From NCBI RefSeq assembly GCF_056712565.1, contig NZ_CM160072.1: a stretch of 64,000 nt of DNA, one strand, 5' to 3'. A model generated the notes under the pieces. The model saw only the letters and a list, made by a program, of their open reading frames with translations. It was not told the DNA's origin and ran no database searches. Positions 16,119 to 16,507 of the stretch are shown here, one piece after another (position 1 is the first letter of the stretch; each line of letters begins with the position of its first letter). A program made the position numbers and the translations under genes.

Positions 16119-16507
16119 GTTCACTGCCGTACAGGCAGTTTAGAAATGGATTCCAAACCGCCCACCAACAAAAACAGGTGTTCACTGCCGTACAGGCAGC
16201 TTAGAAAGATACGATCGAATTTAGTCACTGAATACCCCCGTTCACTGCCGTACAGGCAGCTTAGAAAGGGTTGCGCAATGGGCTGGCCGACGAACGCGGG
16301 TTCACTGCCGTACAGGCAGCTTAGAAATGTGGCGCTGATGCGTCTGGGCGTCTTTGTACGTTCACTGCCGTACAGGCAGCTTAGAAAGCGCGCAGTGCCT
16401 GATAATCAATTTTGCTCATGTTCACTGCCGTACAGGCAGCTTAGAAAGAATATTTTGGAAAAATAGCTATCAATCCGGGGTTCACTGCCGTACAGGCAGT
16501 CTTCAAA
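16119..16507 (+). CRISPR. second type I-F CRISPR array: 7 repeats, 6 spacers (32-33 bp)
   Basis: repeats at 16119 (variant GTTCACTGCCGTACAGGCAGTTTAGAAA), 16180, 16240, 16300, 16360, 16420 and a degenerate terminal copy at 16480 (...GCAGTCTTCAAA); AT-rich leader-like sequence upstream. Confidence 0.97.

Follow-up and report, generated by a model that had tools for sequence, protein, structure and literature searches.

A very probably inactive type I-F CRISPR array that keeps a record of past plasmid and phage encounters in a UTI89-like Escherichia coli locus

The array at positions 16119–16507 of the window (by which we mean the whole stretch of 64,000 nucleotides of contig NZ_CM160072.1 that was analysed) is the second, downstream CRISPR array of the E. 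coli clpA–infA type I-F system. Our analysis indicates that it is, with high probability, an inactive, frozen record of past encounters with plasmids and phages, kept in a UTI89-like type I-F locus. The CRISPR pathway is broken twice in the genome of this strain, by one nonsense codon in csy2 and another in cas6f. The most informative feature of the array, which was absent from the preliminary description of this DNA, is the match of its fourth spacer to a plasmid.

The locus and its lineage

Two arrays flank the type I-F cas operon, and the array considered here is the downstream one. The arrangement clpA–CRISPR–cas–tRNA-Ser–CRISPR–infA is common to the window, UTI89, HS13-1, LF82, and ATCC 11775, and the order of genes agrees with the annotated genomes of UTI89, HS13-1, and LF82. 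NCBIfam equivalog hits were obtained for all six cas genes, i.e., cas1f, cas2-3f (cas3f), csy1, csy2, csy3, and cas6f, with the scores of cas1f, cas3f, and csy1 lying far above the cut-offs of TIGR03637, TIGR02562, and TIGR02564. The elements of the locus are as follows, in window coordinates:

4227–6518: clpA
6731–7058, + strand: upstream sister array, 6 repeats and 5 spacers
7225–8214, + strand: cas1f (NCBIfam TIGR03637), apparently intact
8211–11444, + strand: cas3f (NCBIfam TIGR02562), apparently intact
11774–13081, + strand: csy1 (NCBIfam TIGR02564), apparently intact
13078–14001, + strand: csy2 (cas5f) pseudogene, TAG at codon 72 (window 13291)
14012–15013: csy3 (NCBIfam hit), intact
15024–15578, + strand: cas6f (csy4) pseudogene, TAG at codon 123 (window 15390)
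15689–15776, minus strand: tRNA-Ser
16620–16838, minus strand: infA

Farther along the window, at 24833–26118, there are overlapping tandem repeats with periods of 39, 54, 78, and 93, rich in CAG/CCG codons and located inside ftsK as annotated in matching genomes. Their codon content suggests that the encoded stretch of the protein is repetitive and rich in Pro and Gln.

Compared with 5,426 complete E. coli genomes, the window falls into the group of UTI89, S88, APEC O1, and ATCC 11775; the strain is a member of the B2 lineage of UTI89/ST95 type. The window differs from HS13-1 (NZ_CP026491.1), both arrays of which are identical to those of the window, by 2 SNPs in approximately 20 kb, both outside the array. 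It differs from UTI89 by 6 SNPs in approximately 20 kb, two of which, at 15390 and 16139, fall within the CRISPR-Cas locus. With a coverage of at least 80%, roughly 180–230 complete E. coli genomes have a match to the array or to the adjacent cas6f region.

Anatomy of the array

The downstream array comprises seven 28-bp type I-F repeats with the consensus GTTCACTGCCGTACAGGCAGCTTAGAAA and six spacers, all of which differ from each other. The repeats start at 16119, 16180, 16240, 16300, 16360, 16420, and 16480, which gives start-to-start spacings of 61, 60, 60, 60, 60, and 60, the corresponding spacer lengths being 33, 32, 32, 32, 32, and 32 bp. The array and its leader can be listed as follows:

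15960–16118, + strand: AT-rich leader, 31% GC; no difference from LF82 in the 340 nt that precede repeat 1
16119–16146, + strand: repeat 1, leader-proximal, with C21T at 16139; CRISPR-DR4 47.3 bits
16147–16179, + strand: spacer 1, 33 bp; matches only within CRISPR arrays
16208–16239, + strand: spacer 2; lambdoid prophage match
16268–16299, + strand: spacer 3; DNA methyltransferase gene of the prophage matched by spacer 2
16328–16359, + strand: spacer 4; IncFIB replication initiator (RepB-family repA)
16388–16419, + strand: spacer 5; similar to the beginning of a lambdoid ead/Ea22-like gene
16448–16479, + strand: spacer 6, trailer-proximal and oldest; matches only within CRISPR arrays
16480–16507, + strand: degenerate terminal repeat, identical in UTI89, ATCC 11775, EC9682, and LF82

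Two of the repeats depart from the consensus. In repeat 1, GTTCACTGCCGTACAGGCAGTTTAGAAA, the C of position 21 is replaced by T (window 16139); the other departure is in the last repeat (16480–16507), which is degenerate over its final 8 nt (GTTCACTGCCGTACAGGCAGTCTTCAAA). The preliminary description had given six spacers with their sequences, the first of 33 bp, and had reported the C→T change at position 21 of the leader-proximal repeat; the former agree exactly with the window, and the latter is present at 16139.

The 20-nt core of the repeat occurs in 14 copies in the window, compared with 0 in 100 shuffles. On the + strand, all seven repeats reach the gathering score of the Rfam family CRISPR-DR4 (RF01317), the canonical repeats with 50.1 bits, repeat 1 with 47.3 bits, and the terminal repeat with 35.6 bits (the Rfam threshold is 35). 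The hairpin predicted for the repeat spans positions 6–20 and is made of 5 pairs and a 5-nt loop. A 106-aa open reading frame at 16146–16466 was rejected as a spurious product of a frame that runs through the array.

The 160 nt upstream of repeat 1 have a GC content of 31%, compared with 51% window-wide. Because the AT-rich sequence lies upstream and the degenerate repeat is at the 3′ side, the leader is placed at the 5′ end of the array, and it is at the 5′ side that LF82 has nine extra spacers. The orientation proposed in the preliminary description, in which the 5′ side is the leader end, is thus borne out on all three counts. A simple scan of the + strand leader for sigma-70 consensus sites passed none.

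Two nonsense codons and the variant first repeat

Codon 72 of csy2 (Q72) is TAG at window 13291, where LF82 has CAG, and codon 123 of cas6f (Q123) is TAG at window 15390, where both UTI89 and LF82 have CAG. These two stops interrupt the reading frames of an effector subunit and of the crRNA endonuclease. The csy2 stop is common to the four other compared strains that have this type of array, UTI89, HS13-1, EC9682, and ATCC 11775, in each of which RefSeq annotates an internal stop in csy2; in HS13-1, RefSeq annotates an internal stop in cas6f as well.

The cas6f stop has a much narrower distribution, which it shares with the variant base of repeat 1. Eleven of the 5,426 complete genomes, from hosts that include humans, a dog, and chickens, are 100% identical to the window over 15300–16200 and carry both the cas6f stop and C21T. 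Among the matches listed, the next tier has 99.8% identity over the same interval, which corresponds to two differences, and repeat-1 position 21 is C in UTI89, ATCC 11775, EC9682, and LF82. Because the next-ranked genomes differ by two bases, the cas6f stop and C21T are linked, C21T having arisen on the branch that carries the stop. Both C→T changes, at 15390 and at 16139, are single-base transitions, as errors of sequencing or assembly might be. The probability of such an error is negligible, and we rule it out, since both bases are found in 11 independently sequenced complete genomes.

Cas6f (Csy4) cuts after G20 of the repeat hairpin, so that the 8-nt 5′ handle of the spacer-1 crRNA begins with position 21 of repeat 1. 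The preliminary description had assigned the same role to position 21, in accord with the Csy4 cut rule and with the hairpin predicted at positions 6–20. Going by type I-F biology, an intact system would transcribe the array on the + strand from the AT-rich leader, and Cas6f would cut after G20 of each repeat hairpin to yield crRNAs of 60 nt, each with an 8-nt CUUAGAAA handle, a 32-nt spacer, and a 20-nt hairpin. The crRNA would guide the Csy1–4 complex to a protospacer with a CC PAM, and Cas2-3 would degrade the target. In the genome from which the window comes, the sequence itself shows this pathway to be interrupted twice, by the csy2 nonsense codon, which is older and shared, and by the cas6f nonsense codon, which is private to a small sub-lineage.

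Since both cas6f and csy2 are broken, neither Cas6f processing nor the Csy complex is expected; the array is probably transcribed, with mature crRNA probably absent. It should be noted that low-level readthrough of TAG codons can occur, and for this reason the case for a full loss of function falls short of proof.

The preliminary description suggested that C21T could affect the newest crRNA. This question is moot, as cas6f Q123 and csy2 Q72 are both TAG. Because neither Cas6f nor Csy2 is available, no consequence of C21T for crRNA is expected, and the change is most simply regarded as a neutral late mutation in a decaying locus. The alternative is that the system is partly active and that C21T lowers the production or loading of the spacer-1 crRNA, or alters Cas6f cleavage at the first repeat. 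Several observations are compatible with it: four genes of the operon, cas1f, cas3f, csy1, and csy3, remain intact; the structure predicted for the C21U repeat has an additional A5–U21 pair, which would extend the stem across the cleavage site (−9.8 vs −8.6 kcal/mol); and the Rfam score of repeat 1 drops only slightly. We nevertheless consider residual activity very unlikely, because the two nonsense codons are independent and affect the crRNA endonuclease gene and an essential effector subunit, and because sister strains stably maintain a plasmid with a perfectly matching, correctly PAM-flanked protospacer. The distribution of C21T, found in only 11 of the 5,426 genomes and fully linked to the cas6f stop, is likewise what would be expected for drift on one branch.

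Spacer 4 and the IncFIB plasmid

Spacer 4 matches the gene for an IncFIB plasmid replication initiator (RepB-family repA). The match is 32/32 with a CC PAM both in pUTI89 (L010, 46340–46371, minus strand) and in pPA45B (L005, 1501–1532). The same spacer matches 1,062 PLSDB plasmids at 99% or more and 2,957 plasmid places across the 5,426 E. coli genomes, and IncFIB-type (spacer 4) matches occur in 2,968 of these genomes. The chromosomes of UTI89 and PA45B carry the window's array, while their plasmids carry the target of spacer 4. These are the two named cases in which the array and an IncFIB plasmid co-occur, the upper bound being about 116 genomes with more than one matching record. For HS13-1, the records examined (a 1.5-kb plasmid and the first 50 kb of an IncHI2 plasmid) included no IncFIB plasmid. 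The presence in sister strains of an IncFIB plasmid that is perfectly targeted by spacer 4 fits with lost interference.

Whether that plasmid also caused the loss is a separate matter. A beneficial IncFIB plasmid, recognized by spacer 4, may have driven the csy2 stop, with cas6f hit later owing to leaky readthrough of the csy2 TAG. The first of these steps was proposed for UTI89 by Jiang et al. 2013 (PMC3784566), and it accords with the perfect PAM-flanked targets in pUTI89 and pPA45B, with the 2,968 of 5,426 genomes that have IncFIB-type matches, and with the EC9682 array, which is without spacers 4 and 5. However, EC9682 also has the csy2 stop, and therefore the loss of its spacers needs no selection; the closest relative, HS13-1, had no IncFIB plasmid among the records examined; and a second stop would be expected from drift alone once csy2 was dead. 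Taken as a whole, selected decay is in our opinion possible and yet doubtful. Its more specific form, in which the second round of decay (the cas6f Q123 TAG and C21T, in 11 genomes) reflects selection that removed residual anti-plasmid activity arising from the leaky csy2 TAG72, is improbable. If it were true, the sub-lineage would be a natural example of stepwise, plasmid-driven CRISPR shutdown.

The coexistence of spacer and target in UTI89 and PA45B could also be taken to mean that spacer 4 is regulatory and not immune, serving, for example, to control the replication of a resident plasmid, an idea that Touchon and Rocha 2010 (PMC2886076) raised for spacers against a strain's own plasmids. 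This is hardly credible for spacer 4: a full-length match with a canonical PAM is the configuration for cleavage and not for binding only, the effector genes are broken, and LF82, in which the cas genes are intact, retains the spacer.

Spacers 2, 3, and 5 point to lambdoid phages

Spacer 2 matches 32/32 in a prophage contig from IMG/VR, IMGVR_UViG_2529293142_000021 (L012, 1608–1639, minus strand). The 5′ flank of this protospacer is GCCA, in which CC is displaced by one base, and the protospacer overlaps the GTG start of an HNH-like ORF (phrog_1588) that adjoins genes for RusA, a DNA methyltransferase, and a Q antiterminator. Spacer 3 has its match in this contig too (30/32, CC PAM, 2508–2539, + strand), where it translates to GLRNGLADER inside a methyltransferase ORF of 635 aa. 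Thus, spacers 2 and 3 map within approximately 900 bp of one lambdoid prophage. The second spacer of the upstream array (window 6819–6850) matches this prophage as well (30/32, CC PAM, 1719–1750), which brings to three the spacers from both arrays that lie, on both strands, within 930 bp (1608–2539) of a lambdoid nin-type region. Such clustering, with two CC PAMs and one shifted CC, is the pattern expected from primed adaptation, to which it may be attributed. Overall, a CC PAM accompanies the matches of spacer 3, of spacer 4 (in pUTI89 and pPA45B), and of spacer 2 of the upstream array.

A GTDB genome scan returned no match to spacer 2, and the prophage region L012 1200–4200 was not found in the 5,426 complete E. 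coli genomes. Within the same contig, a 37-nt piece of the methyltransferase gene (3323–3359) recurs without a mismatch in 162 other E. coli genomes, where it carries a CRISPR annotation.

The reverse complement of spacer 5, ATGAGCAAAATTGATTATCAGGCACTGCGCGC, translates to MSKIDYQALR, and the preliminary description had proposed on this ground that the spacer derives from the start of a coding gene. The proposal is supported by homology to the 5′ ends of ead/Ea22-like genes, with no exact protospacer. The closest matches outside arrays, with 2–4 mismatches, are in lambdoid phages, E. coli prophages, and phage-plasmids. In HK140, mEpX1, and an E. coli prophage, 28–29 of 32 positions are identical, and the matching stretch is where an annotated gene of the opposite strand begins (its first 32 nt). 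This gene is ead/Ea22-like in HK140 and in the prophage, and in mEpX1 it is a homolog annotated as “hypothetical protein”; the proteins of these relatives start with VSKIDYQALR or VSQIDYQALR. The flanks at these places are TA or CT, not CC. Because TA or CT stands in place of the PAM, no relative of spacer 5 is taken to be the actual donor. Searches for an exact protospacer in IMG/VR (with or without a CC PAM, degenerate positions allowed) and for an exact match in JGI metagenomes returned none.

Neither spacer 1 nor spacer 6 had a match in INPHARED phages or PLSDB plasmids with the E-value limit set at 1, outside arrays in the 5,426 E. coli genomes with the limit set at 0.5, or in IMG/VR; for spacer 1, GTDB genomes and JGI metagenomes gave no match either. 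In several sampled type I-F strains (NC101, NGF1, M-17, and others), spacer 6 is the only one among spacers 1, 2, 3, and 6 that matches. The content of the array would therewith amount to a record of an IncFIB plasmid, one lambdoid prophage, the start of an ead/Ea22-like gene, and two other sources.

History of the array

The array of LF82 has 22 spacers in the order s19–s27, s06, s07, s08, s28, s09, s10, s29–s34, s11, and the six spacers of the window, s06–s11, are an ordered subset of them. Nine newer, leader-proximal spacers and seven internal spacers of LF82 are all missing from the window. The leader (340/340 nt) and the trailer (113 nt) are identical between the two, and in LF82 both csy2 and cas6f are intact. 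To judge from the sequences, the internal differences must be deletions, and no spacer has been acquired after the lineages of the window and LF82 split.

The comparison with LF82 also bears on the age of spacer 1, which the preliminary description took to be the newest. LF82 carries it, as the same 33-bp spacer, at position 10 of 22, and for this reason the first spacer of the window is old and not a recent acquisition.

Related arrays provide further observations. In EC9682 (L007, 9973–10241), the array is that of the window minus spacer 4 (anti-IncFIB) and spacer 5, and the csy2 stop is present. The upstream array of the window (6731–7058) has five spacers, the oldest of which (s05) also occurs in LF82. 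UTI89 and EC9682 have three more internal spacers, s12–s14, in this array, which therefore underwent an internal deletion in the lineage of the window.

A degenerate mini-array between cas3f and csy1

The 330 bp that separate cas3f from csy1 contain a degenerate antisense mini-array (window 11448–11631, minus strand). A promoter-like site, TTGCCA-17-TAACAT, at 11557–11529 is followed by a first repeat-like copy (11528–11501), in which the handle CTTAGAAA is conserved at 8/8 positions, a 25-nt spacer, TAGAGGTATCTCCGGATACGGACTT (11500–11476), and a second repeat-like copy (11475–11456), in which the hairpin part is identical to the repeat at 18/20 positions. The spacer pairs with 11629–11617 (minus strand) at positions 1–5, 7–11, and 13, the mismatches being exactly positions 6 and 12. 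This target, which consists of CC (11631–11630) and TAGAGATATCTTC (together 11631–11617, minus strand), has no second of its kind in the window, where chance would be expected to produce 0 such hits. It lies approximately 145 bp upstream of the csy1 ATG, a region in which no + strand promoter passed the scan.

The mini-array shows the features of the CreR/CreA class, namely two repeat-like copies around a short spacer and a nearby PAM-flanked site whose partial complementarity to the spacer is PAM-proximal. The same architecture has been published for type I-F1 cas3–cas8 mini-arrays and CreR (Shmakov et al. 2023; PMC10120712) and for the type I-F CreTA module of Acinetobacter (Cheng et al. 2023; PMC10097628); in the articles consulted, we found no description of one in E. 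coli type I-F. Between cas3f and csy1, the window, UTI89, and LF82 do not differ at all (100% identity). Since the sequence is thus the same with dead and with intact effectors, neither an active CreT-type toxin in the gap nor a lethal toxin freed by the loss of the effector is likely, and a CreR-type autoregulator of the csy operon is the better guess.

Comparison with known systems

For this E. coli lineage, publications of 2010–2013 had already described the array, its anti-IncFIB spacer (which is self-targeting), and the csy2 stop. Touchon and Rocha 2010 (PMC2886076) reported that CRISPR3/CRISPR4 spacers in UTI89, APEC O1, and S88 target the strains' own plasmids and included RepA in their list of plasmid protospacers. 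Jiang et al. 2013 (PMC3784566) presented UTI89 as an example of CRISPR inactivation, with a spacer that matches pUTI89 and a premature TAG in csy2, and gave the corresponding csy2 codon as CAG in ED1a, NRG 857C, and LF82. As cited in a later article (PMC8148099), Aydin et al. 2017 described type I-F spacers that are directed at conserved parts of IncFIB, IncFII, and IncI1 plasmids; the later article describes the type I-F system of LF82 as constitutively active (PMC8148099).

The known case is an example of CRISPR inactivation that allows the carriage of a beneficial plasmid. To it, the present analysis adds the lineage-private cas6f stop linked to the repeat-1 variant, the ordered-subset relationship with LF82, and the assignment of three spacers to one prophage region. 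These additions help strain typing and illustrate progressive decay, and they leave the understanding of the system unchanged. For an ordinary array of a known system, the finding matters little beyond annotation.

The CRISPR4 array of UTI89 (NC_007946.1, 896106–896494) is the same as that of the window in its six spacers, their order, the leader, the terminal repeat, and the csy2 TAG72. UTI89 differs in having C at repeat-1 position 21, an intact cas6f, and three additional spacers (s12–s14) in the upstream array. HS13-1 and ten more genomes of the sub-lineage are identical to the window over 15300–16200, the cas6f stop and C21T included. LF82 shares with the window the repeat, the leader, the trailer, the gene order, and the six spacers in the same order, including the 33-bp one, but differs in its intact csy2 and cas6f and in its 22 spacers. 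The target motifs of the LF82 type I-F system have reportedly been studied by Almendros et al. in 2012 (PMC3506596).

The type I-F paradigm comes from Pseudomonas aeruginosa PA14 and Pectobacterium, and includes Csy4 cleavage, the CC PAM, and primed adaptation with slipped spacers. The system of the window differs from it in being, most probably, inactive, and the mechanistic steps outlined above are modeled on the paradigm. The likeness lies in the 28-bp repeat with its 5-bp stem, 5-nt loop, and 8-nt handle, in the 32-nt spacers, in the CC PAM of spacers 3 and 4 and the one-base-slipped CC of spacer 2, and in the three clustered spacers.
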